The notes: a model not told the origin generated them from the sequence alone. Shown: positions 3,805-52,979, counted from the first letter of the stretch. The stretch: DNA of 64,000 nucleotides from Coprobacillus sp. (GCA_021203905.1 JAJQAG010000004.1:129939-193938), one strand, 5' to 3'. Numbers and translations: made by a program.

Positions 3805-4115
3805 TTGGTGTTGATACTTTCAATGACTAAGCATGTGTAGGGCTGACGATGGCCCATGGTTTTTCTCTCATTGGTTTTTGCTCGATAATGGAAAACGCGA
3901 ATTTTTCTTTCTTTGCCCTGTTTTTCCACTGTAGCGGTGACACTAGCGCCACTCACATAGGGTTTCCCAACAGAGTTTTTCTTACCGTCAGAGATGAATA
4001 GCACTTTATCGAGAGTGACACTTGAACCCTCTTCAGCGGGAAGTTTTTCAACATAGACATGTTGACCAACCTCGACACGGACTTGCTTTCCACCCGTTTC
4101 AATGATTGCGTACAT
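3801..4115 (-). CDS. rplU: 50S ribosomal protein L21
   Basis: 104 aa, beginning [17 protein letters not shown] Shine-Dalgarno lies 7 nt upstream. Confidence 0.95.
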
Positions 4116-4262
4116 TACTTGGCCTCCTTATTTTAAATTCACTAAGGACTCGCTATGAAGGTCGAGAAGAATCTCAGTTAGTAAACCTTTTCTAGGCGGT
4201 TGTAGCTAGTGAGGCTAAACAACGCTTGATACTATAACATAGTTATAATATGCCCGCAAGAA
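4116..4262 (-). promoter_or_regulatory. rplU promoter (TTGCGG-17-TGtTATAGT) plus a leader of about 125 nt, possible L21 leader
   Basis: On the minus strand an extended -10 TGTTATAGT sits with 17-nt spacing to a TTGCGG -35. A long structured 5' UTR precedes the L21 Shine-Dalgarno. The L21 autoregulatory leader of Firmicutes is established knowledge, but the fold was not verified here. Confidence 0.35.
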
Positions 4263-4276
4263 GTTTTTTAAGAGGG

Positions 4277-4972
4277 TTAGAGTTTTTTATAGATGATGTC
4301 TTTATTATCCGCAAACGAATAATAACCTTGACCAGAGATGATAATGTGATCGAGAAATTCAATTCCGACTTTTGCACTATCCTCTAAAAGAAGGAAGGTG
4401 AAATTGATATCATAGTCACTCGGTGTGACCACCTTTTGACCAGAGGGGTGATTATGAATAATGTAATACTTTTTCCCTCCTCTCTTTAGTATTTCCCCTA
4501 AAATTTCATTTTCATTCACCGACATATCACTACTGGTTCCTTGGTAGAGATCGCTCTCATGAATGATCCTTCCACTTTTAGAGATGGAGACGACGATAAG
4601 GTGTTCTTGTCCTTCGTCTCGAAATAGGCTTTGGTATTTGTTAATGAGGTATTCTTTGATATCCCCAATCGAGGCACACTCTTGAATCTGATAGTTGTAT
4701 CTTTTAGCGATTTCTATGACCGCGGCAATCTTGGTGGCATTGATCTTATTAATCCCTTCATGGGCCACTAAATCATCCATGGTCATTTCTCCTACTTTTA
4801 CTAGTCCTCCTTCCATTAAAATAGATTGACTTATCTCAATCGCGGACATCTTCTTAGTTCCACTAGAGATAATCAGAGCGACGAGTTCTGTATCAGAGAG
4901 GGCGCTAATCCCATAACGCATGGCTTTTTCTCTCGGTCTGAGTAAAGGTGGGATGTTTTTTATCTTTCCCAT
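4277..4972 (-). CDS. radC: RadC-like JAB/MPN domain protein (UPF0758)
   Basis: HNHPSG JAMM motif and an N-terminal HhH segment LSDTELVALI. The start is set at the ATG at 4972 (MGKIKNIPPLLRPRE), which overlaps the stop of the upstream small ORF as TAATG. The track start at 4993 is an alternative. Confidence 0.85.
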   Translation of the reverse strand: MGKIKNIPPLLRPREKAMRYGISALSDTELVALIISSGTKKMSAIEISQSILMEGGLVKVGEMTMDDLVAHEGINKINATKIAAVIEIAKRYNYQIQECASIGDIKEYLINKYQSLFRDEGQEHLIVVSISKSGRIIHESDLYQGTSSDMSVNENEILGEILKRGGKKYYIIHNHPSGQKVVTPSDYDINFTFLLLEDSAKVGIEFLDHIIISGQGYYSFADNKDIIYKKL

Positions 4973-5186: not shown

Positions 5187-5236
5187 TAAGAGATTTCTCT
5201 CTTTTGGGAGAAAAATGTTAAAGAAAAGACACAAAA

Positions 5237-5262
5237 GAAAAAATCACCGAAGTGATTCTCTC
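5237..5262 (-). terminator. intrinsic terminator after valS
   Basis: The minus strand reads AATCACttcgGTGATT followed by TTTTTT. Confidence 0.6.
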
Positions 5263-5285
5263 TTTTATATACAAAGTATATAAAC

Positions 5286-7865
5286 TTACTTTAACTTAGA
5301 GAGCAAGGCCTTGAGATTCTCTTCGTGTTTCTTCTTCTTCGCTTGCTCAAGCTCGACCTTTTCTTTTGGGGCTTTAGAGACAAAACTTGGATTAGAGAGT
5401 AAGCTCTCACATCTATTGATCTCACTCTTAAGATATTCTATCTCTTTTAAGATGGCGTCTTTGTCAGTCTCTTCTTCTACAATTAAGAGATCAAAACTAG
5501 AGAATGTATAGAGAGAACCTTCTTTCTTAGAGATGTTTTTATCATTAATTGTGAGCTCATCTGTAAAGGTAAATCTCTTAAATAAAGGAGTAATATCATA
5601 ACTATATAGACCTTTATAGTTGAGAGAGACGACTAACCCTTGATTGGGAGAGATTTTTCTCTCAATTTTATAGTTTCTCACGACCTTAATAGCACTCACT
5701 AAAGAATCTATGAGTTCATCACTCTCTTTATTAACCCACTTTGCGTGATACTTAGGATAGGTTTCTAAGTTCACACTTTCTCGGTGAGAAGGAAGTGATA
5801 AATAGATCTCTTCACTGATAAAAGGAGTAAAAGGAGAGAGCATTAAAACAATATTCTTAAGGCAATAATAGAGGACTTGATAAGTAACCTCTCTCTCCTC
5901 ACTTTGAAGAGAAACTTTACTCATCTCGATATATGTAGAGCAGAAATCATCGTAGACAAAGTCATAGAGAAGAGAACTCGCTTGATTAAAGTTATAGTGT
6001 TCCATATGGGTGGTGACCTTCTTTGTCACCTCTTCCATCTTATTAATAATCCATTGATTAAGAGGAGATAAGTCTAAACGAGAGAGATTCTTTACTGGTT
6101 TAAAGCCTTCTGGTAAGACACTTAAGACATAGCGTGCGGAATTATAGACCTTATTTAAGTAATTAGAGGCCGCAACGACCTTATTTTCACTATATCTCAT
6201 GTCAAGACCTGCTGCGGTATTCGTGGTAAGGAAATATCGAAGAGCATCCGCACCATATTTATCGATAACCACAAGGGGATCCACTCCATTACCTAAGGTT
6301 TTTGACATCTTTCTTCCTAATTCATCACGACAGAGACCATGAATGATGACATTACGGAAAGGAATCTGGTTATTAAAATGGAGAGATTGGACCATCATAC
6401 GACTGACCCAGAAAAAGATTATGTCATATCCTGTAATAAGAGCGGAGGTTGGGAAATAACGCTGAAATAATGGATCTGTAGTATCAGGCCAGTTTAAAGT
6501 GGCAAAGGGCCAAAGAGCACTTGAGAACCAAGTATCTAAGACATCACTATCTTGTTCGTAGTTATTAATATCTTTTGGGGCCTCTTCACTAACGATGACA
6601 GAGCCATCAATCTTTGAATAATACGCTGGGATACGATGTCCCCACCTAAGTTGACGAGAGATACACCAATCTTCGATATTATCCATCCAGCGGATAAGAG
6701 TATTATTAAATCTTTGTGGGATAAAATTCACTTTCCCTTTACCCTTTTGTGTCTCAATGACTTTTTGGGCAAGAGGTTTCATCTTCACAAACCATTGTTT
6801 GGAAATCATTGGTTCCACAACAGCGCCAGAGCGCTCACTATGTCCCACAGAGTGAGTGATGGTTTCTTCTTTGATAAAATCATCATTATCTATTAGTTCT
6901 TTTAATAAAGCTTCACGACAATCATATCTATCTAGGCCTTGATATTTCCCGCAGTGCTCATTCATCTTCCCATCTAGCGTCATAATCACAGGTTTCTCGA
7001 GATGATATTTCTCCCCAATAAGAAAGTCATTAGGATCATGAGCGGGTGTACATTTCATCACTCCCGTTCCAAAACTAACATCGACATATTCATCACAAAT
7101 TACTTCAATTACTTCTTTATTTGCGGGATTTATCACTTTTTTACCGATATATTTTGTATATCTTTTATCTTTAGGATTCACTACAAGACAGACATCTCCA
7201 AACATGGTCTCGGGTCTTGTTGTGGCCACTGTGAGATATTCATCACTATCCACTAAACGATACTTAAAGTAATACATCTTTCCTAGATCATCGCTATGGA
7301 TAACTTCAACATTACTTAAAGCGGTCATCTGCACTGGATCCCAGTTTATGATCCTCTGTCCTTGATAGATAAGTCCTTCCTTATACATTTGGACAAAGAC
7401 TTTCTTTACCGCTTTTTGCATCCCCTCATCAAGGGTGAATCTTTCCTTAGAATAATCAAGGCTTAATCCAAACTTCTTCCACTGCTCATGAATGCTAGAT
7501 GCATACTCATCTTTCCATTGCCAAGCGTAGGTTAGGAATTCATCACGACTTAAATCATGAGGATTAATCCCACTATTTCTGAGTTTCTCACTGACTTTAG
7601 CTTCAGTAGCAATACCCGCATGATCCATTCCTGGAAGGAATAAGACATCATATCCTTTCATTCTTTTATAGCGGCAGATAATATCTTGTATGGTCGTGTC
7701 CCAAGCATGTCCTAAATGGAGTTTTCCGGTCACATTAGGGGGAGGAATAACGATGGAATATGGTTTCTTAGTGAGATCACCACAAGTAAAATAACCTTTC
7801 TGACACCAGGTTTCATACTTCCCTTCTTCCACTTTTTTTGGATCGTATCTTTTATCCATAACCAC
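5286..7865 (-). CDS. valS: valyl-tRNA synthetase
   Basis: 859 aa. HIGH-type motif region (GKLHLGHAW) and KMSKTLGN. A C-terminal coiled coil is present. Confidence 0.97.
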   Translation of the reverse strand: MVMDKRYDPKKVEEGKYETWCQKGYFTCGDLTKKPYSIVIPPPNVTGKLHLGHAWDTTIQDIICRYKRMKGYDVLFLPGMDHAGIATEAKVSEKLRNSGINPHDLSRDEFLTYAWQWKDEYASSIHEQWKKFGLSLDYSKERFTLDEGMQKAVKKVFVQMYKEGLIYQGQRIINWDPVQMTALSNVEVIHSDDLGKMYYFKYRLVDSDEYLTVATTRPETMFGDVCLVVNPKDKRYTKYIGKKVINPANKEVIEVICDEYVDVSFGTGVMKCTPAHDPNDFLIGEKYHLEKPVIMTLDGKMNEHCGKYQGLDRYDCREALLKELIDNDDFIKEETITHSVGHSERSGAVVEPMISKQWFVKMKPLAQKVIETQKGKGKVNFIPQRFNNTLIRWMDNIEDWCISRQLRWGHRIPAYYSKIDGSVIVSEEAPKDINNYEQDSDVLDTWFSSALWPFATLNWPDTTDPLFQRYFPTSALITGYDIIFFWVSRMMVQSLHFNNQIPFRNVIIHGLCRDELGRKMSKTLGNGVDPLVVIDKYGADALRYFLTTNTAAGLDMRYSENKVVAASNYLNKVYNSARYVLSVLPEGFKPVKNLSRLDLSPLNQWIINKMEEVTKKVTTHMEHYNFNQASSLLYDFVYDDFCSTYIEMSKVSLQSEEREVTYQVLYYCLKNIVLMLSPFTPFISEEIYLSLPSHRESVNLETYPKYHAKWVNKESDELIDSLVSAIKVVRNYKIERKISPNQGLVVSLNYKGLYSYDITPLFKRFTFTDELTINDKNISKKEGSLYTFSSFDLLIVEEETDKDAILKEIEYLKSEINRCESLLSNPSFVSKAPKEKVELEQAKKKKHEENLKALLSKLK

Positions 7866-14608: not shown

Positions 14609-14685
14609 TGGCGCCCTCGAGGCGACTCGAACGCCTGACCCACAGCTTAGAAGGCTGTTGCTCTATCCAACTGAGCTACGAGGGC
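14609..14685 (-). tRNA. tRNA-Arg (anticodon TCT)
   Basis: The reverse complement folds as a cloverleaf: acceptor GCCCTCG/CGAGGGC, T-loop TTCGAGT, anticodon loop CTTCTAA. U33 and A37 are present. The discriminator is G and CCA is encoded. Confidence 0.9.
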
Positions 14686-45103: not shown

Positions 45104-48100
45104 ATGTTTACACCCTTAAGAATTATTACTGGTTATACTTTTCTTTCTAGCGGTTTATCGGTTGATAAAACTGTTGGATATTTAAAGAAAACCAATTATC
45201 TCGGAGCGGGCATTTGTGACCGTGGGGTTTTATATGGTTTAGCAGAGTTCTATCACCTCATGAAAGGCATTGATAAAAAACCCATTGTGGGTATAGAACT
45301 CGTCATTGATTCTTTAGTGTGCGCGATTTACATCATTAGTGAAGAGAGCTATCGCGATATGTGTCAATTAAGCGCACTGCTCGATGAGTATGAAGTCTCC
45401 TTAAAAGACATTGAAAGATTCACGAAGAACTCCCTTGTCGTGATCGATACAAGCACAGATTCTTTCCAAGCCTTGTTTGAGAATGACCTAGAGATGAGAA
45501 AGAAACTTCTCTCTTTTTCAAAAGCCTTTAAAGAATGCTATTTAGGAATCGAAGTCATTAGCAAAGAAGATAAACTTAAAGCGGATCGCGTCAGAAAGTT
45601 TGCTCGTCAATATCCCTATCCTTTAGTGGCTTTCCCTAAGATCCGCTACAAAAAAGAAGAAGACGCCATCTCAATTAAGATCGCAGAGGCTATAAGAGAT
45701 AGTGCTAATCTTGAAGAGAAAAGTGCTACTGGAGAAGAGTGCTTCCACGATGAAAGTTATTATCAGCAAAGATATACAAAAGAAGAAATTGATAACACGG
45801 AGAAGATTCTTTCTTCCTCTACTTTTGATTACTTTATGAAGAGAGGAAAAATGATCCATTATTCCGATGAAAGCGATAAAAACCTTTTAAAAGAGAGGGC
45901 TTTTAAAGGACTAGAAAGTAAAAACCTTGCAAATCAGGAATATGTCGAGAGATTAAACTATGAACTCGAAGTTATTGAAGAAATGGGCTATAACGACTAC
46001 TTTTTAGTGGTGGCCGATTATGTGAGATATGCGAGAGAAAATCATATTCTAACCGGTCCTGGAAGAGGTAGCGCGGGTGGTTCTCTTGTCGCCTATGCCC
46101 TGGGGATTACCACAATTGATCCCATAAAGCATAGTTTGAGATTTGAAAGATTTTTAAATAAATCTCGTAAGTCCATGCCAGATATCGATGTCGATTTCGC
46201 GGATAATCGTCGTGATGAAGTCGTTGAGTATGTAAGAGAGAAGTATGGAAAGAATCGAGTAGCTAATATCGTTACTTTCCAAACTATTGGCGCGAAGCAA
46301 GCTCTAAGAGATATCGGAAGAGTCTATCAATATAAAAACTCCCATATCGATCGACTTTGTAAAATGCTTGGGAAAAGCGATGTTAGTTTAAGAGAGAGCT
46401 ACCTCACAAACAAGATATTTAAAGAAGAGGTTGATCGCGATAAGTATGTCTTAGAGATTGTCACCTTAGCCTCTAAGATTGAAGGTCTTCCCCGACAAAG
46501 TGGCCAACATGCCGCGGGTATTGTTTTAAATGATGAACCCCTAGAGAACGCTATCCCCATCACTAAGGATTTTGATGGTAACTATATTGTCCAATATGAG
46601 ATGACATACCTTGAAGAAGATGGATTCTTAAAGATGGATTTTTTAGGACTAAAGAACCTCACTATTATCGATAACTGTGTCGCTCTCATCAACAGAACTG
46701 AACATCTCCATCTCGATCCCTTTAATCTCGATTGGGACAAGAAAGAAGCATATGAAGTTATCTCTCGCGGAGAGACCATGGGTCTCTTCCAGATAGAAAG
46801 TGAAGGTATGCTTAAATCAATAAGAGAAATCCAACCAACCTGTTTTGATGATATCGTCGCCCTGCTCGCTCTCTTTAGACCTGGACCCATGAGCTCTATC
46901 CCTATGTACGCAAAAAGAAAGAAAGGTTTAGAGAAAGTCACCTATCTCTCTAAAGATATGGAAAGGATTCTTGCTCCAACCTATGGAATTATCGTCTATC
47001 AAGAACAGATTAACGAAATCGCTACCACTATGGCGGCTCTTAGTCCTGATGAAGCGGATAATTTTAGAAGAGCAGTCTCGAAAAAGGATGCCACCAAAAT
47101 GGTGGGTCTTGAGAGAGAATTCATCGAAGGAGCAAAGAAAAATGGTTATAGCGAAAAAGATAGTAAAGAGACCTTTAAGCTCATCGAAAAGTTTGCAGAA
47201 TACGGATTTAATAAATCACATGCTGTAGGTTATGCAGTGGTAACGGTTGAGATGGCGTACCTTAAAGCCTTATACCCCTTACAATTCTATGCTTGTATCC
47301 TTGATAGCACCTCAGGTAGCGATCCTAAGTTCAACCAATATCTTGTGGAGATGAGAAAGAACAATTACAATGTCGCTCTTCCTTCTATTAACTACTCCAC
47401 GGCGAGATTTGAAATTAAAGATAATACTCTTCTTTATCCATTAACTGGAATTAAAGGACTTAATGTCCCTAATGCCTACGATATCTTAAGAGAAAGAGAA
47501 ATCAACGGAAAGTTCGAAGACTTCTATTCGTTTGTGACGAGAATGTTCCCCTACCACTTCACGGAAAACATGGTCACTAAACTTATTGATGCAGGAGCCT
47601 TTGATGAGATGAATCCTTCTCGTGCTTCTTTAAGAGCGTCAATTCTCTATGCTTTCCAACTTGCTAAACTCTCCGTTGGAGAGAATGGACAACTTACTTT
47701 AGGATTATCTCTCCCGAAACCCAAGATTATCGTCGATAAAGATGACTTAAAAGACAATCTCGAGAGAGAAAAAGAATGTTTAGGGACAAATCTCTCTAAG
47801 AGTCCACTCTCTTATAGACAAGATTTACTTGCCGCTAATGAGGTCACACCTCTTGAAAAGGTGACGGCCTATAATAAGACCTATAATGTCGCGGGAATGG
47901 TTCTCTCAGTAAAAAAGATAACCACTAAGAATAAACAGAATATGGCATACATTAAGATCTTTGATGATGTCACTGAACTAGAAGTCACTGTATTCCCATC
48001 ACTATATGAGAAAGTCTTTGATTTACTCACTAACTACAATTGTCTCCTTATTAGAGGAAAGAAAGATCAACAATCCTTTATCGCGGAGGACATTAAACTA

Positions 48101-48118
48101 TTAGAGGAGAGCATCTAA
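45104..48118 (+). CDS. dnaE: DNA polymerase III alpha subunit, DnaE type
   Basis: 1004 aa. N-terminal PHP region, polymerase core with GRGSAGGSLVAYALGIT, and a C-terminal OB domain. Confidence 0.9.
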   Translation: MFTPLRIITGYTFLSSGLSVDKTVGYLKKTNYLGAGICDRGVLYGLAEFYHLMKGIDKKPIVGIELVIDSLVCAIYIISEESYRDMCQLSALLDEYEVSLKDIERFTKNSLVVIDTSTDSFQALFENDLEMRKKLLSFSKAFKECYLGIEVISKEDKLKADRVRKFARQYPYPLVAFPKIRYKKEEDAISIKIAEAIRDSANLEEKSATGEECFHDESYYQQRYTKEEIDNTEKILSSSTFDYFMKRGKMIHYSDESDKNLLKERAFKGLESKNLANQEYVERLNYELEVIEEMGYNDYFLVVADYVRYARENHILTGPGRGSAGGSLVAYALGITTIDPIKHSLRFERFLNKSRKSMPDIDVDFADNRRDEVVEYVREKYGKNRVANIVTFQTIGAKQALRDIGRVYQYKNSHIDRLCKMLGKSDVSLRESYLTNKIFKEEVDRDKYVLEIVTLASKIEGLPRQSGQHAAGIVLNDEPLENAIPITKDFDGNYIVQYEMTYLEEDGFLKMDFLGLKNLTIIDNCVALINRTEHLHLDPFNLDWDKKEAYEVISRGETMGLFQIESEGMLKSIREIQPTCFDDIVALLALFRPGPMSSIPMYAKRKKGLEKVTYLSKDMERILAPTYGIIVYQEQINEIATTMAALSPDEADNFRRAVSKKDATKMVGLEREFIEGAKKNGYSEKDSKETFKLIEKFAEYGFNKSHAVGYAVVTVEMAYLKALYPLQFYACILDSTSGSDPKFNQYLVEMRKNNYNVALPSINYSTARFEIKDNTLLYPLTGIKGLNVPNAYDILREREINGKFEDFYSFVTRMFPYHFTENMVTKLIDAGAFDEMNPSRASLRASILYAFQLAKLSVGENGQLTLGLSLPKPKIIVDKDDLKDNLEREKECLGTNLSKSPLSYRQDLLAANEVTPLEKVTAYNKTYNVAGMVLSVKKITTKNKQNMAYIKIFDDVTELEVTVFPSLYEKVFDLLTNYNCLLIRGKKDQQSFIAEDIKLLEESI

Positions 48119-48119
48119 T

Positions 48120-50723
48120 ATGGCAAAGCTCATACTCGTTGATGGTAATTCCTTATTGTTTAGAGCATTCTACGCTACGGCATACTCTTCTCCTAATGGG
48201 ATTATGAGAACTTCTAGTGGTGTCCCCACAAACGCAATCTTCTCTTTTAGTGCGATGATTAATCGCATCTTAAAGGATCTTAATCAAGGGGACTATTTTA
48301 TGGTGGCTTTTGATGCGGGTAAAAAGACCTTTAGGAATGAAGAGTTAGAAACCTATAAAGCGAATCGAAAAGCCGCACCAGACGAGCTTGTCAAGCAATT
48401 CCCCATTGCCAGAGAATTCCTTAAAGCTCTCAATATCTTTCAATTTCAAGAAGAGGGGTATGAAGGGGATGATATTATTGGTTCGCTATCTTCGATAGCG
48501 GAATCACAGAATATCAAGACCATTATCTATACTTCAGATAGAGATTTCCTTCAATTAGTGAATGACAAGATTAACGTCAATATCCTTATTAAGGGGATGA
48601 GTGATACAGAATTATATGATACCCAAAAAGTCTATGACAAATATGGGTTTGGACCAGAGTTTATACCAGACTACAAAGGATTAAGAGGTGACAGTGCAGA
48701 TAACCTAAAAGGCATCAGTGGCGTGGGTGAAAAGACCGCTTCAAAACTTATTGAAACCTATGGTGACTTCGATAGTATCGTGAAGGCCATGGAAAATGAT
48801 ACTTCTAAGGTTGGCCAATCAATCATCGCAGAGCAAGATCAAGGAAGACTCTGTAAACAACTTGGTATCATAAGAAAAGATATTGAATTACCTTTTGACC
48901 TTAAAGATACACTTTATGAGGGCTACTCTTTTAATCACATTAAAGAGTTCTGTGATAAGTATGAGCTTAAGACCTTTCTCAATCGTCTCATTAATAAATG
49001 GAAGAGAGATGATGAAGAGGAGGAGATGGTTGTTTCTGATATTAGTGAACTCGATACCAAAGATGTGAATGAGATTGGAATTGCTATCGATCTTGAAGAT
49101 GAAGAGGATTACTACAACTCCCCTATTCTTGGGGTGGGATTACATATTAAAGATAAGAACTTCTATGTCGATATCCCCACACTTAAAAAGACAAAAGATC
49201 TTCTAGATCTTTTAAGAAACGAAAATGTCAAGAAATACTGCTACGATTATAAATGCATAAAGGTGGCCCTATCCACGCAAGGAATTGAGATTAATGGATT
49301 AGCATTTGATATCTTAATTGCCACCTATCTCCTTGATACCTCTCTTAATAAGAATGCTGAACATATCTTCTCTTACTTTGGAGAGAATATCTCATCGAGA
49401 AAAGATAACACCATGTCGCTTCTTGATATGGATAACTCCTTAACCACTACCAAGATTGCCTACTTTAGTTATAAGCTCGCTCCTAAAGTGGTCACTGATC
49501 TCTCGATTAGTAAGATGCTAGATTTATATAATGATCTCGAATTACCACTTGTTGATACCTTAGCCAATATGGAAATAGAGGGTTTCCCACTAGATAGAGG
49601 AGAGCTAGAAGAATATGGGAAGCAATACCAAGAGATAATTAACGAGAAAGAGCAAGAGATATACCAATTAGCGGGTAAGGAGTTCAATCTTAATTCTCCA
49701 AAGCAACTCGCGACTCTATTGTTTGAAGATCTTGGACTCTATGATAGAAGCGGAAATGGTTCCACTTCAGTAGAGAATCTCAATGAAATCAGAGAGGAAC
49801 ATCCTATCATCCCCGCGATACTAGAATATCGAAAGTACTTTAAACTCCTCTCTACCTATGTCAATGGCTTGACCGCTCATATCAGAGAGGATAATAAAAT
49901 CCACGCTCAATTTAACCAAGCTCAGACCCAGACAGGAAGATTATCATCTTCTAATCCCAACCTTCAAAACATCCCTGCCAGAGATGAAGAAAGTAAGTTT
50001 ATAAGAAAAGCTATGCACTATGAAGATGAGAATCTAGAGATATTATCTCTAGACTACTCGCAAATTGAATTACGAGTGCTCGCGCATATGTCAGGATGCC
50101 AAACCATGATAGATATCTTTAATTCAGGTTTAGACATTCATGGAGAAATGAGTAAAAGAATCTTCCATCTTGATGGTGAACCCACAGCGGAGCAAAGAAG
50201 AAAAGCTAAAACAGTAAACTTTGGTATCATCTACGGAATAAGTGATTGGGGTTTAGCGGATCGTCTTTCTATCCCTTTAAAAGAAGCCAAAGAAATCATC
50301 ACTTCCTTCTATAAGGAATTCCCAGAAATAGAAGCCTATCTTAATAAGATTAAAGAAGCCGCTAATAAAGATGGTTATGTCTCCACAATTATGGGAAGAA
50401 GAAGATATTTATCGGGAATTAATGATAGTAACTACCAAGTAAGAGAATTCCAAAAGAGAGCGGCGGTCAATGCTCCAATACAAGGTAGCGCCGCGGATCT
50501 TATTAAAACCGCAATGGTGAAATGCGAAAAGGCTTTAAAAGAAAAAGGACTTGAAACGAAGATGATCCTTCAAATCCATGATGAGCTTATCTTTAAGGTC
50601 CCAGTTAAAGAAAAAGAAATCGTCTTACCACTTCTTAAAGATATCATGTCAAATGCCTTAAAACTCAATGTTCCCTTAGAGGTAAACGGAGGCTTTGGCA
50701 AGGATTGGTATGAAGCAAAATAG
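48120..50723 (+). CDS. polA: DNA polymerase I
   Basis: 867 aa. 5'-3' exonuclease N-terminus and Pol A motifs DYSQIELRVLAH and RRKAKTVNFGIIYG. Confidence 0.95.
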   Translation: MAKLILVDGNSLLFRAFYATAYSSPNGIMRTSSGVPTNAIFSFSAMINRILKDLNQGDYFMVAFDAGKKTFRNEELETYKANRKAAPDELVKQFPIAREFLKALNIFQFQEEGYEGDDIIGSLSSIAESQNIKTIIYTSDRDFLQLVNDKINVNILIKGMSDTELYDTQKVYDKYGFGPEFIPDYKGLRGDSADNLKGISGVGEKTASKLIETYGDFDSIVKAMENDTSKVGQSIIAEQDQGRLCKQLGIIRKDIELPFDLKDTLYEGYSFNHIKEFCDKYELKTFLNRLINKWKRDDEEEEMVVSDISELDTKDVNEIGIAIDLEDEEDYYNSPILGVGLHIKDKNFYVDIPTLKKTKDLLDLLRNENVKKYCYDYKCIKVALSTQGIEINGLAFDILIATYLLDTSLNKNAEHIFSYFGENISSRKDNTMSLLDMDNSLTTTKIAYFSYKLAPKVVTDLSISKMLDLYNDLELPLVDTLANMEIEGFPLDRGELEEYGKQYQEIINEKEQEIYQLAGKEFNLNSPKQLATLLFEDLGLYDRSGNGSTSVENLNEIREEHPIIPAILEYRKYFKLLSTYVNGLTAHIREDNKIHAQFNQAQTQTGRLSSSNPNLQNIPARDEESKFIRKAMHYEDENLEILSLDYSQIELRVLAHMSGCQTMIDIFNSGLDIHGEMSKRIFHLDGEPTAEQRRKAKTVNFGIIYGISDWGLADRLSIPLKEAKEIITSFYKEFPEIEAYLNKIKEAANKDGYVSTIMGRRRYLSGINDSNYQVREFQKRAAVNAPIQGSAADLIKTAMVKCEKALKEKGLETKMILQIHDELIFKVPVKEKEIVLPLLKDIMSNALKLNVPLEVNGGFGKDWYEAK

Positions 50724-50731
50724 AGGTTAAA

Positions 50732-52123
50732 ATGCCAGAGTTACCAGAAGTCGAAACAATTCGCAATATCTTAAAATCCATTGTGATTGGAAAAACCATT
50801 TCAAACGTGGATGTTTTTCGTGAAAAAACTATTTTAAGTGATGTGAATGAATTCAAAAATAATTTAGTGGGAGCCACGATAAAAGATATAGAGAGAAAAG
50901 GGAAATTTCTCATCTTTGTTTACGACAATAATTACGCTTTACTCTCTCACCTACGCATGGAAGGAAAGTATTATCTCTTAGAGGAAGAGACACCAAATAC
51001 TAAGTATGCTAGAGTGGTCTTTCACTTTACAGATAACACCAAATTGTGCTTTGATGATTCGCGATGCTTCGGGATTATGAAATTAGCAAAAACAGCGGAA
51101 ATTTACGAAGAAAAAGAATTAAAAAGCTTAGGATTAGAGCCTTTTGAAATTTCTGATGTCGATTTTTTGATGAAACGGAATAAGAAAAGTAATAAACCCA
51201 TTAAGTCAACCTTGCTAGATCAAACTCAAATTGCTGGTCTTGGGAACATTTATGCGGATGAAGTTCTCTTCTATAGTGGTATTAACCCACTAGAAAAAGC
51301 GAAAGATATAACTAAAGATCAATGGAAAACGATTATTAAAAATGCCGTTATTATTTTAAATAACGCGATTAAAGATGGAGGCAGTACAGTGCATTCCTAT
51401 CACCCCGCTGATGGAATTGACGGCAATTTCCAAACAAAATTAAAAGCGTACGGAAAACGAGGAGAAAATTGTCCCAATTGTGGACACGAATTGTATTATA
51501 AAAAGATTAATGGACGAGGCTCTACTTATTGCCCGATGTGTCAAAAGAAGCAACACCCGCCTATCTTTGTTGGTTTAACTGGTCCTATCTCTAGCGGAAA
51601 ATCTGTTGTTCTTGAAATATTCAAGAGAGAAGGTTGCTCTGTTCTTTCATGCGATGAGGTGGTTCATGAGTTATATAAACAACCAGAGGTTATTACAAAA
51701 ATCTCCTCTATCACGGGCTTAAAATTTGGAAATGAAGTTGATAGAAATGCTTTACGAGAATACACAAACGGCAATCTTAAGGCTCTAAAACGCATTGATA
51801 ATTACATCCATCCTCTTGTGAGAAAGTATGTAAGCGAATTTCTTGATGAAGCCTGTGGTAGCGCTGTTGTGGAAGTTCCACTTCTTTTTGAAAGTCATTT
51901 CCAAGATCTATTTGATTACATTGTCGCAGTTTCTATCTCTAAAGATAGGCAGTTAAAATACCTTAGAGCGAGAGAAGAGCATTTTGAAGAAATGCTTGAA
52001 TTAAACGGAAAAGAAAACACCTTCTACACAGAGAAGGCGGATTATGTCATAAAAAATGACGGAGATTTAGAACAACTTTCGAAGGAAGTTAAGACTTTTC
52101 TTCGTAAAGTCCAGCGAGATTAG
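50732..52123 (+). CDS. mutM-coaE: formamidopyrimidine-DNA glycosylase fused in-frame to dephospho-CoA kinase
   Basis: The N-terminus reads PELPEVE and the Fpg domain ends in the Zn finger CPNC...CPMC. This is followed directly by the CoaE P-loop IFVGLTGPISSGKS. There is no stop between the two domains. Confidence 0.8.
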   Translation: MPELPEVETIRNILKSIVIGKTISNVDVFREKTILSDVNEFKNNLVGATIKDIERKGKFLIFVYDNNYALLSHLRMEGKYYLLEEETPNTKYARVVFHFTDNTKLCFDDSRCFGIMKLAKTAEIYEEKELKSLGLEPFEISDVDFLMKRNKKSNKPIKSTLLDQTQIAGLGNIYADEVLFYSGINPLEKAKDITKDQWKTIIKNAVIILNNAIKDGGSTVHSYHPADGIDGNFQTKLKAYGKRGENCPNCGHELYYKKINGRGSTYCPMCQKKQHPPIFVGLTGPISSGKSVVLEIFKREGCSVLSCDEVVHELYKQPEVITKISSITGLKFGNEVDRNALREYTNGNLKALKRIDNYIHPLVRKYVSEFLDEACGSAVVEVPLLFESHFQDLFDYIVAVSISKDRQLKYLRAREEHFEEMLELNGKENTFYTEKADYVIKNDGDLEQLSKEVKTFLRKVQRD

Positions 52124-52979
52124 AAACCACAATCTCATGGTCACAATCAAGAGCAATAAGATCGACGAGATCTTTTGCTTTGTATCGAGAATCTTTACTC
52201 ACAGTAATATAGTGTTCAAATAATTCATTAAAGGAGAACTTTGAAACATAAATTGTTTCAAGTTGTCTCTCATTTCTAAACTTAATAATCTTTTTGATGA
52301 TTTGATCACGGATGTAATCATTCGCAAATTCTTCTCCAAAATTATCCAAGACGAGAAGATTACAGCGGGAGTATCTTTTAATCATCTCTTCTCTCTCTTC
52401 TTCACTAGCTTTATTCATTTCGTTAATGCGGTAGACACTATCAAGATAGCAGATTTTGTCCACTCCATCTTTAGCGATTTCATTCGTAATCGCGGTGGCT
52501 AGATATGACTTACCAGTATTCTCCGCTCCTTGAATATAAGTAGACTTACGATCAAAGTAGGCTCTTTGAATGGCATCATATCTCTTCTTAGAGGTATCAA
52601 GATTTCCGGTCTTAATATCAAGAATGTCCCACTCTTGGGGATAATCTCTAAGAATGTATCTTGTATTTAGTGTGGTTAACTTAAGGATTTGTTGGCAGGG
52701 AATAAATAGTTCTTCCACCACTCCAGAGTGAACTTTGATATTACTGGTGACAAAGCTCTCTTTCGAGCACTTTTCAATTCCAGGACATTTGGAACAAATT
52801 AAATGATCACAGACATAGTCATAAACACTGTAAATATATTCATCAAGGAGCTTCTCATCAAGATTAGCGGGTAATGGAACTTCTTTTTCGTGCTTTTTAA
52901 TAAAAGCTTTCATCGAAGCAATTTGCTTGGTGTCTCTTTTTATTCCTAATTCATCGATGTTGATATTAATCTTTTCCAT
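52089..52979 (-). CDS. dnaI: primosomal helicase loader DnaI
   Basis: 296 aa. AAA+ Walker A GAENTGKSYLA and Walker B LLVLDNFGEE. An N-terminal Zn-binding domain is present. Confidence 0.85.
   Translation of the reverse strand: MEKININIDELGIKRDTKQIASMKAFIKKHEKEVPLPANLDEKLLDEYIYSVYDYVCDHLICSKCPGIEKCSKESFVTSNIKVHSGVVEELFIPCQQILKLTTLNTRYILRDYPQEWDILDIKTGNLDTSKKRYDAIQRAYFDRKSTYIQGAENTGKSYLATAITNEIAKDGVDKICYLDSVYRINEMNKASEEEREEMIKRYSRCNLLVLDNFGEEFANDYIRDQIIKKIIKFRNERQLETIYVSKFSFNELFEHYITVSKDSRYKAKDLVDLIALDCDHEIVVSNLAGLYEEKS

Follow-up and report, generated by a model that had tools for sequence, protein, structure and literature searches.

An in-frame fusion of the DNA glycosylase Fpg/MutM with dephospho-CoA kinase in Coprobacillus sp. 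and related Bacilli

Dephospho-CoA kinase (CoaE) performs the last step of coenzyme A (CoA) synthesis. In a 64,000-nucleotide stretch of DNA from Coprobacillus sp. (GCA_021203905.1 JAJQAG010000004.1:129939-193938; "the window" below means this whole stretch), coaE is joined in frame to mutM, the gene for the DNA glycosylase Fpg/MutM, in a single open reading frame (ORF). Among the closest described systems are the overlapping or coupled mutM-coaE pairs of Lactobacillales, Staphylococcus, Acholeplasma and others, in which mutM likewise precedes coaE and the pair lies downstream of polA. In the overlapping pairs the two genes occupy distinct frames and CoaE is a separate protein, whereas in the window the frames are permanently merged and the coaE start is gone. 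A study using GeneTack identified "DNA glycosylase / Dephospho-CoA kinase" as a conserved frame-transition cluster, and its reporter experiments suggested that a frameshift-derived fused product and coupled initiation are both possible (PMC3711429). In a review of phytoplasmas, genes that carry an Fpg annotation are credited with the functions of MutM as well as CoaE in each of the four phytoplasma genomes. As far as the review's description goes, these genes look as a fused gene would be expected to look; phytoplasmas belong to the Acholeplasmatales, whereas the window protein is labelled Coprobacillus sp. Beyond the phytoplasma remark and the GeneTack cluster, the literature searched contained no paper describing or characterising an Fpg-CoaE fusion. 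The architecture itself already appears in the precomputed Pfam domain lists of databases and in one passing mention in the literature.

Human CoA synthase (COASY) is a fusion of PPAT and DPCK. It indicates that the DPCK fold tolerates an N-terminal partner, although the partner in that case is a CoA-pathway enzyme. Mycobacterial CoaE (the 415-amino-acid (aa) chain 6n39) carries an extra C-terminal domain of unknown function rather than a DNA-repair partner. A sequence search of the PDB returned no chain that covers both an Fpg and a CoaE module. The fusion gene of the window and its parts are as follows, with distances in nucleotides (nt).

50732..52123, plus strand: the complete fusion gene mutM::coaE, with an ATG start, 463 codons and a TAG stop (ORF listing).
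50732..51547, plus strand: the Fpg/MutM module, residues 1-272 (Pfam, NCBIfam, PDB match and superposition of an AlphaFold2 (AF2) model).
51548..51565, plus strand: the six-residue linker KKQHPP, residues 273-278, without a stop, a frame change or a usable internal start.
51566..52120, plus strand: the dephospho-CoA kinase (CoaE) module, residues 279-463 (Pfam CoaE, TIGR00152 and solved CoaE chains).
51581..51604, plus strand: the CoaE P-loop GPISSGKS, residues 284-291 (alignments; it matches GGIGSGKT of H. influenzae CoaE, 1jjv).
50723..50726, plus strand: a Shine-Dalgarno (SD)-like GAGG that shares the last base of the polA stop codon and lies 5 nt 5' of the start codon; context AAATAGAGGTTAAAATG.
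Residues 274-290: a linker-crossing tryptic peptide, QHPPIFVGLTGPISSGK, spanning a stretch without a start codon.

The original prediction, made from the sequence alone, had proposed one 463-codon ORF holding a complete Fpg, from PELPEVE to the zinc finger CPNC...CPMC, followed directly by the P-loop and the remainder of a CoaE domain. The ORF listing reproduced this gene exactly, with residues 1-272 assigned to Fpg/MutM and residues 279-463 to CoaE. Both modules are complete, both score above the curated cut-offs of their NCBIfam equivalog families, and the E-values of the domain matches are far below anything expected by chance. Along the protein, the MPELPEVE N-terminus is followed by the CPNC...CPMC zinc finger, by KKQHPP and then by IFVGLTGPISSGKS. 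The DNA across the junction, from the zinc finger through the linker to the P-loop, reads TAT TGC CCG ATG TGT CAA AAG AAG CAA CAC CCG CCT ATC TTT GTT GGT TTA ACT GGT CCT ATC TCT AGC GGA AAA TCT, without a stop or frame change, and translates as YCPMCQKKQHPPIFVGLTGPISSGKS.

Evidence for the identity of the N-terminal half came from family models, alignments and structures. NCBIfam TIGR00577 (fpg) matches residues 1-271 over its whole length (model positions 1-276 of 276) with 294.8 bits against a cut-off of 203.3, in agreement with the predicted completeness of the domain. The Pfam models match the N-terminal catalytic domain (Fapy_DNA_glyco, residues 1-116, 1.3e-33), H2TH (residues 133-221, 5.6e-25) and the zinc finger (zf-FPG_IleRS, residues 244-272), the last falling slightly under its cut-off (20.3 bits versus 21.3). 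Homologues were aligned in two sets, one of 27 sequences (A1) and one of 65 diverse, more distant fused proteins (A2). In both sets P2, E3, K58, R111, N172, R262 and the four zinc-finger cysteines (C247, C250, C267 and C270) are invariant, and M76 and F113 are invariant or nearly so; M76, R111 and F113 make up the intercalation triad of MutM structures. Residues 1-272 align end to end with L. lactis Fpg (1tdz, 1.2e-57) in a PDB sequence search, and superposition of the AF2-modelled Fpg part on MutM 1r2y gives a target-normalised template modelling (TM) score of 0.94 and a root-mean-square deviation of 1.7 Å. The PELPEVE motif, K58, the triad, H2TH, the four cysteines and R262 are shared with stand-alone Fpg (1tdz and 1pji, and Geobacillus stearothermophilus MutM, 1r2y and 1l1t). 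Solved Fpg chains are about 270 aa long and end a few residues past the last zinc-finger cysteine, whereas the fusion continues for 191 residues more. Residues 1-272 are thus predicted to form a glycosylase acting on 8-oxoguanine and formamidopyrimidine (Fapy) lesions, with apurinic/apyrimidinic lyase activity.

The C-terminal half is matched by two models. Pfam CoaE covers residues 279-447 with 76.7 bits (2.3e-21; cut-off 27), and NCBIfam TIGR00152 covers residues 280-454 with 93.9 bits (cut-off 65.55; model positions 2-187 of 188), so a complete kinase domain follows Fpg, as had been proposed. The P-loop fits the pattern GxxxxGK[ST]; in both alignments its residues G284, G289 and K290 do not vary, and the same is true of D308, which lines up with D33 of H. 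influenzae CoaE (1jjv). S291 shows no variation in A1, whereas the wider family has S or T at this position. Two motifs typical of CoaE, EVPLLFE and the C-terminal N442 motif, are retained. Residues 279-460 align across the full kinase with solved CoaE chains from T. maritima (2grj), Legionella (4ttp), T. thermophilus (1uf9), H. influenzae (1jjv) and E. coli (1vhl), which have in common the P-loop, the D33 equivalent (D308) and PLLFE. In contrast to stand-alone CoaE, the kinase half has no initiator methionine of its own, and its strand beta-1 starts six residues after the Fpg zinc finger; the P-loop reads GPISSGKS here and GKIASGKS in the clade, compared with the usual GGIxSGKS of CoaE. Residues 279-463 are predicted to be an active dephospho-CoA kinase. 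A decayed CoaE domain was considered and rejected, given the invariant catalytic residues and a ratio of non-synonymous to synonymous substitution rates (dN/dS) of 0.12.

The kinase fold might also have been turned to another use. Fpg acts by beta,delta-elimination and leaves phosphorylated DNA ends that require further processing, and a P-loop kinase tethered beside a DNA-binding zinc finger could conceivably act on such nucleic-acid ends and no longer make CoA. There is very little chance that this is so: the domain scores above the TIGR00152 equivalog cut-off, retains the P-loop, D308, EVPLLFE and N442 motifs, and is clearly orthologous to the coaE found downstream of mutM in relatives, and no other coaE was seen nearby in the 64-kb window.

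That the two genes are truly joined is supported by homologues. The exact protein (P0001) is present in NCBI nr and in a Logan assembly. Each of the 120 best homologues, which stem from NCBI, ENA, JGI and Logan assemblies and are 456-492 aa long and 46-84% identical, contains both the Fpg and the CoaE Pfam domains, and a profile search from the 65 more distant fused proteins likewise returned only fused matches (120 of 120). In an exhaustive phmmer search over 1.84 billion representatives clustered at 50% identity, the two domains occur near-complete within a single chain in 117 of the 150 best representatives, at identities as low as 32%, so the fused family is both large and old. Two other long Fpg proteins, P0252 (579 aa) and P0268 (517 aa), have long C-terminal extensions without the zinc-finger-to-P-loop junction; P0252 matches the query over the Fpg part only. 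Both may be other kinds of Fpg fusion.

Comparison of the window with L081, the locus of the 84% orthologue, gave dN/dS values of 0.06 for Fpg and 0.12 for CoaE, ratios that are rough because dS is about 1 but clear in direction. Across the junction itself (codons 262-295) there are 17 synonymous and only 2 non-synonymous differences from the 84% orthologue, and the frame is kept. The junction is under strong purifying selection.

These data bear on the alternative raised by the original prediction, that a stop codon was lost, or a 1-nt insertion or deletion introduced, through sequencing or assembly, falsely joining two genes. Since the genes overlap in some relatives, a 1-nt error could join them, and some of the distant "fused" representatives are singletons on short contigs that could be errors of this kind. 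However, the same junction register is found in all close and mid-distance homologues, from many independent assemblies, the frame remains intact despite the 17 synonymous changes, and the context of a coaE start codon is gone at the junction. A lost stop is rejected because of the conserved architecture, the orthologous loci and the purifying selection across the junction, and an artefact has almost no chance of being the explanation. The proposed in-frame fusion is borne out by the 120 best homologues, the 117 of 150 representatives, synteny and junction selection; comparison of orthologous loci, suggested as a check, showed that L081-L086 keep the fusion downstream of polA in the same gene order. 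In the window, L001-L005 and L081-L086 alike, one ORF runs from Fpg through a short linker behind CPxCQ into CoaE, with no coaE start left. As judged from sequence, the fusion is genuine, vertically inherited and common among this group of gut bacteria. The description of it as unusual holds against model Firmicutes; in a large Erysipelotrichales-like/uncultured Bacilli clade, the fused gene is the normal state, and the exact protein already stands in NCBI nr. Thus the earlier note read the fusion correctly, and it is ordinary for its lineage.

A fused ORF could still yield two proteins, with CoaE released by internal initiation or by proteolysis of the linker. In the window's gene, codon 269 near the junction is an in-frame ATG, and a frameshift product together with downstream initiation has been reported in reporter constructs from relatives with separate genes (PMC3711429). 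We searched the region from zinc finger to P-loop for ATG, GTG and TTG in eight fused loci (the window, L001-L005, L081 and L083). No SD-like motif was found within 18 nt upstream of any in-frame junction start in any of the eight, and in two of them, L002 and L004, the junction has no in-frame ATG, GTG or TTG at all. M269 is not conserved, being replaced by I, R, V, K, N, C or L in other homologues, and initiation at this codon was rejected, as it lacks both conservation and an SD. The linker, for its part, is just six residues long and is modelled as ordered, and no observation hints at its proteolysis, although no test aimed at cleavage was made. Release of a separate CoaE by either route is highly improbable; because an internal start with an SD is absent and M269 is variable, the C-terminal half of the fusion protein is the only form in which CoaE is translated.

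Together, these findings make it likely that the protein is a passive bifunctional enzyme, in which two autonomous active sites are produced 1:1 from a packed dnaE-polA-mutM::coaE gene string and which has become fixed in a compact genome. A single polypeptide of about 53 kDa would carry two independent enzymes, CoaE would be made only within the fusion and in a 1:1 ratio with Fpg, and the fusion would mainly fix co-expression in a compact genome rather than create a new function. The genes that surround the fusion are the following.

45104..48118, plus strand: dnaE (DNA polymerase III alpha), the first gene of the tightly packed string (Pfam DNA_pol3_alpha, finger, HHH_6 and PHP).
48120..50723, plus strand: polA (DNA polymerase I), directly upstream of the fusion (Pfam 5_3_exonuc_N, 5_3_exonuc, DNA_polI_exo1 and DNA_pol_A).
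52089..52979, minus strand: a convergent dnaI-like AAA+ gene (ORF with a weak IstB_IS21 match) whose 3' end overlaps the fusion gene by 35 nt.

The spacers within this string (window 45104-52123) are 1 nt between dnaE and polA and 8 nt between polA and mutM::coaE, which suggests that a replicative and a repair polymerase are encoded together with a glycosylase and an enzyme of the CoA pathway in a single transcription unit. The 84%-identical orthologue (P0002) occurs in two other genome assemblies with the gene order retained: dnaE-polA-fusion, then the convergent dnaI-like and dnaB-like genes, then pfkA and thrS. The same order is seen around a 49%-identical homologue (P0056) on 15 contigs from separate samples. 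The convergent 3' overlap with the dnaI-like gene is 35 nt in the window (52089-52123), 29 nt in L081 (6358-6386) and 26 nt in L083 (6382-6407), so this overlap of coding sequences is conserved; it leaves no intergenic room for terminators. A terminator-like hairpin with a T-run, identified by consensus match, lies on the minus strand at window positions 52018-52039, within the CoaE coding sequence and about 50 nt beyond the dnaI-like stop; it could end the convergent transcript inside coaE. Elsewhere in the window, a ribosomal protein L21 leader (4135-4211, minus strand; 39.7 bits on Rfam RF00559, whose gathering score is 36) and one tRNA-Arg(TCT) gene (14609-14685, minus strand) were the only RNA features found.

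Evidence as to how the fusion arose came from the arrangement of mutM and coaE in a sample of 80 species-representative genomes, for which the matches listed, at up to 43% identity, were classified with our own domain hidden Markov models (HMMs) and ORF maps. Among the loci listed, five are fused (an Erysipelotrichales assembly and four assemblies labelled Bacillales or Bacilli), and in 19 the genes are separate and abutting or overlapping, with overlaps of 1-29 nt. The overlap takes the form ATGA in Streptococcus and Solobacterium; in an Acholeplasmataceae assembly, L042, Alkalibacterium and Enterococcus, coaE begins 25-29 nt inside the part of mutM that encodes the zinc finger; and in Staphylococcus, Sporosarcina, Izemoplasmatales and others a few nt separate the genes. 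In about 15 further loci they lie roughly 0.5-0.9 kb apart, with an intervening ORF filling the spacer in Bacillaceae and Paenibacillus loci and a spacer of 0.5 kb in Streptococcus minor. No coaE was found within 4 kb of mutM in a few Bacilli/Erysipelotrichaceae assemblies and in the non-Firmicutes among the loci listed. The original prediction had drawn on the view that most Firmicutes keep polA, mutM and coaE as neighbouring but separate genes, and this holds in these genomes.

Several of these loci have features of their own. In L017 (844-877), L042 (4779-4815), L010 (4810-4849) and L038 (4810-4846), the sole plausible coaE start is 25-29 nt inside mutM in the other frame, and none of the four has a coaE start beside the P-loop. 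Such long overlaps are the type of site that the GeneTack paper flagged for possible frameshift or coupling (PMC3711429). In the Spiroplasma endosymbiont of Zeiraphera isertana (L066, 3965-4828), mutM is split into three successive ORF pieces matching HMM positions 1-87, 94-145 and 151-271 and is apparently a pseudogene. In Bacillus toyonensis (L014, 3995-6058), a CoaE-like ORF (3995-4594) lies upstream of an Fpg ORF (5231-6058) on the same strand, which is the reverse of the order in all other loci sampled.

Because mutM and coaE abut or overlap in relatives, one small change near the mutM stop could have produced the fusion. The ancestral state would be the old Firmicute mutM-coaE pair with abutting or overlapping stop and start codons, from which such a change would both bring coaE into the mutM frame and eliminate the coaE start; a base substitution would suffice where the frames already agree, and a 1-nt insertion or deletion within the overlap where they differ. 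In a neighbour-joining tree of the concatenated domains, the window, L001-L005 and about 60 representatives fall in an all-fused part, and elsewhere fused sequences interleave with overlapped-gene taxa. While this pattern hints at repeated independent fusion, we make no such claim, since the tree is star-like and without bootstrap support, and eight of the ten interleaved fused proteins that we checked are singletons on one contig.

The order of the two domains is constrained by the chemistry of the glycosylase. The Fpg nucleophile is the N-terminal proline, exposed once Met1 has been removed. Since the nucleophile is at the N-terminus, Fpg must be the N-terminal partner in any fusion, and Fpg followed by CoaE is the only workable order.

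The linker and the AF2 model, which was built on A1, bear on whether the two activities are functionally coupled through a fixed domain geometry, with one regulating or assisting the other; for example, nucleotide or CoA binding might modulate Fpg, or the repair of oxidative DNA damage might be tied to CoA supply. The linker has an identical length of six residues in the 27 homologues of 46-84% identity. The mean predicted local distance difference test score (pLDDT) of the model is 89.3 and averages 92 in the block over the linker (271-280), and the predicted TM score (pTM) for the two-domain chain is 0.84. The sole weak stretch, residues 221-240, can be interpreted as the flexible lesion-capping loop of Fpg. 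CoA is a major low-molecular-weight thiol in some Firmicutes, and mutM-coaE adjacency is widely kept across Firmicutes and their relatives. In a B. subtilis GO-system mutant, CoaE was up 9.5-fold, and CoA was discussed as an antioxidant (PMC10968225). However, the increase in B. subtilis could reflect a polar effect of the upstream mutM disruption, the linker sequence is only 35% identical, and most relatives have separate proteins. Moreover, among more distant fused proteins the linker ranges from about 2 to 14 residues, which speaks against a single obligatory geometry. While some of these data are consistent with coupling, we consider it unlikely.

A specific form of this idea, still less probable on our assessment, is that, in the clade of the window protein, the Fpg zinc finger serves as a rigid docking site for the kinase, as the constant six-residue linker and the confident whole-chain model suggest, such that ATP, dephospho-CoA or CoA might tune repair, or repair load might tune the supply of CoA as a thiol. 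If so, redox metabolism and base-excision repair would be linked physically and directly through the docked kinase, and docking would also explain the wide retention of mutM-coaE adjacency in Firmicutes. Against the passive bifunctional protein that we favour, the constant near-clade linker, the linker pLDDT and the pTM may hint at a fixed domain arrangement that goes beyond passive co-expression. The HMM searches found no second mutM or coaE within the 64-kb window.

The fusion has a practical consequence for annotation. The exact protein is named [quoted passage not shown] in NCBI nr, and named homologues are called Fpg only, or "bifunctional glycosylase/AP lyase", with the CoaE half omitted. 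Because the proteins are named Fpg only, metabolic reconstructions of gut Bacilli and Erysipelotrichales will miss the last step of CoA synthesis, and the phytoplasma literature displays the same confusion between Fpg and CoaE annotation. The locus is also a clean natural example of translationally coupled, overlapping genes collapsing into a fusion protein, and it illustrates a constraint on domain order, in that Fpg keeps its free N-terminal proline. It would represent a new kind of biology only if the two activities prove to be coupled.

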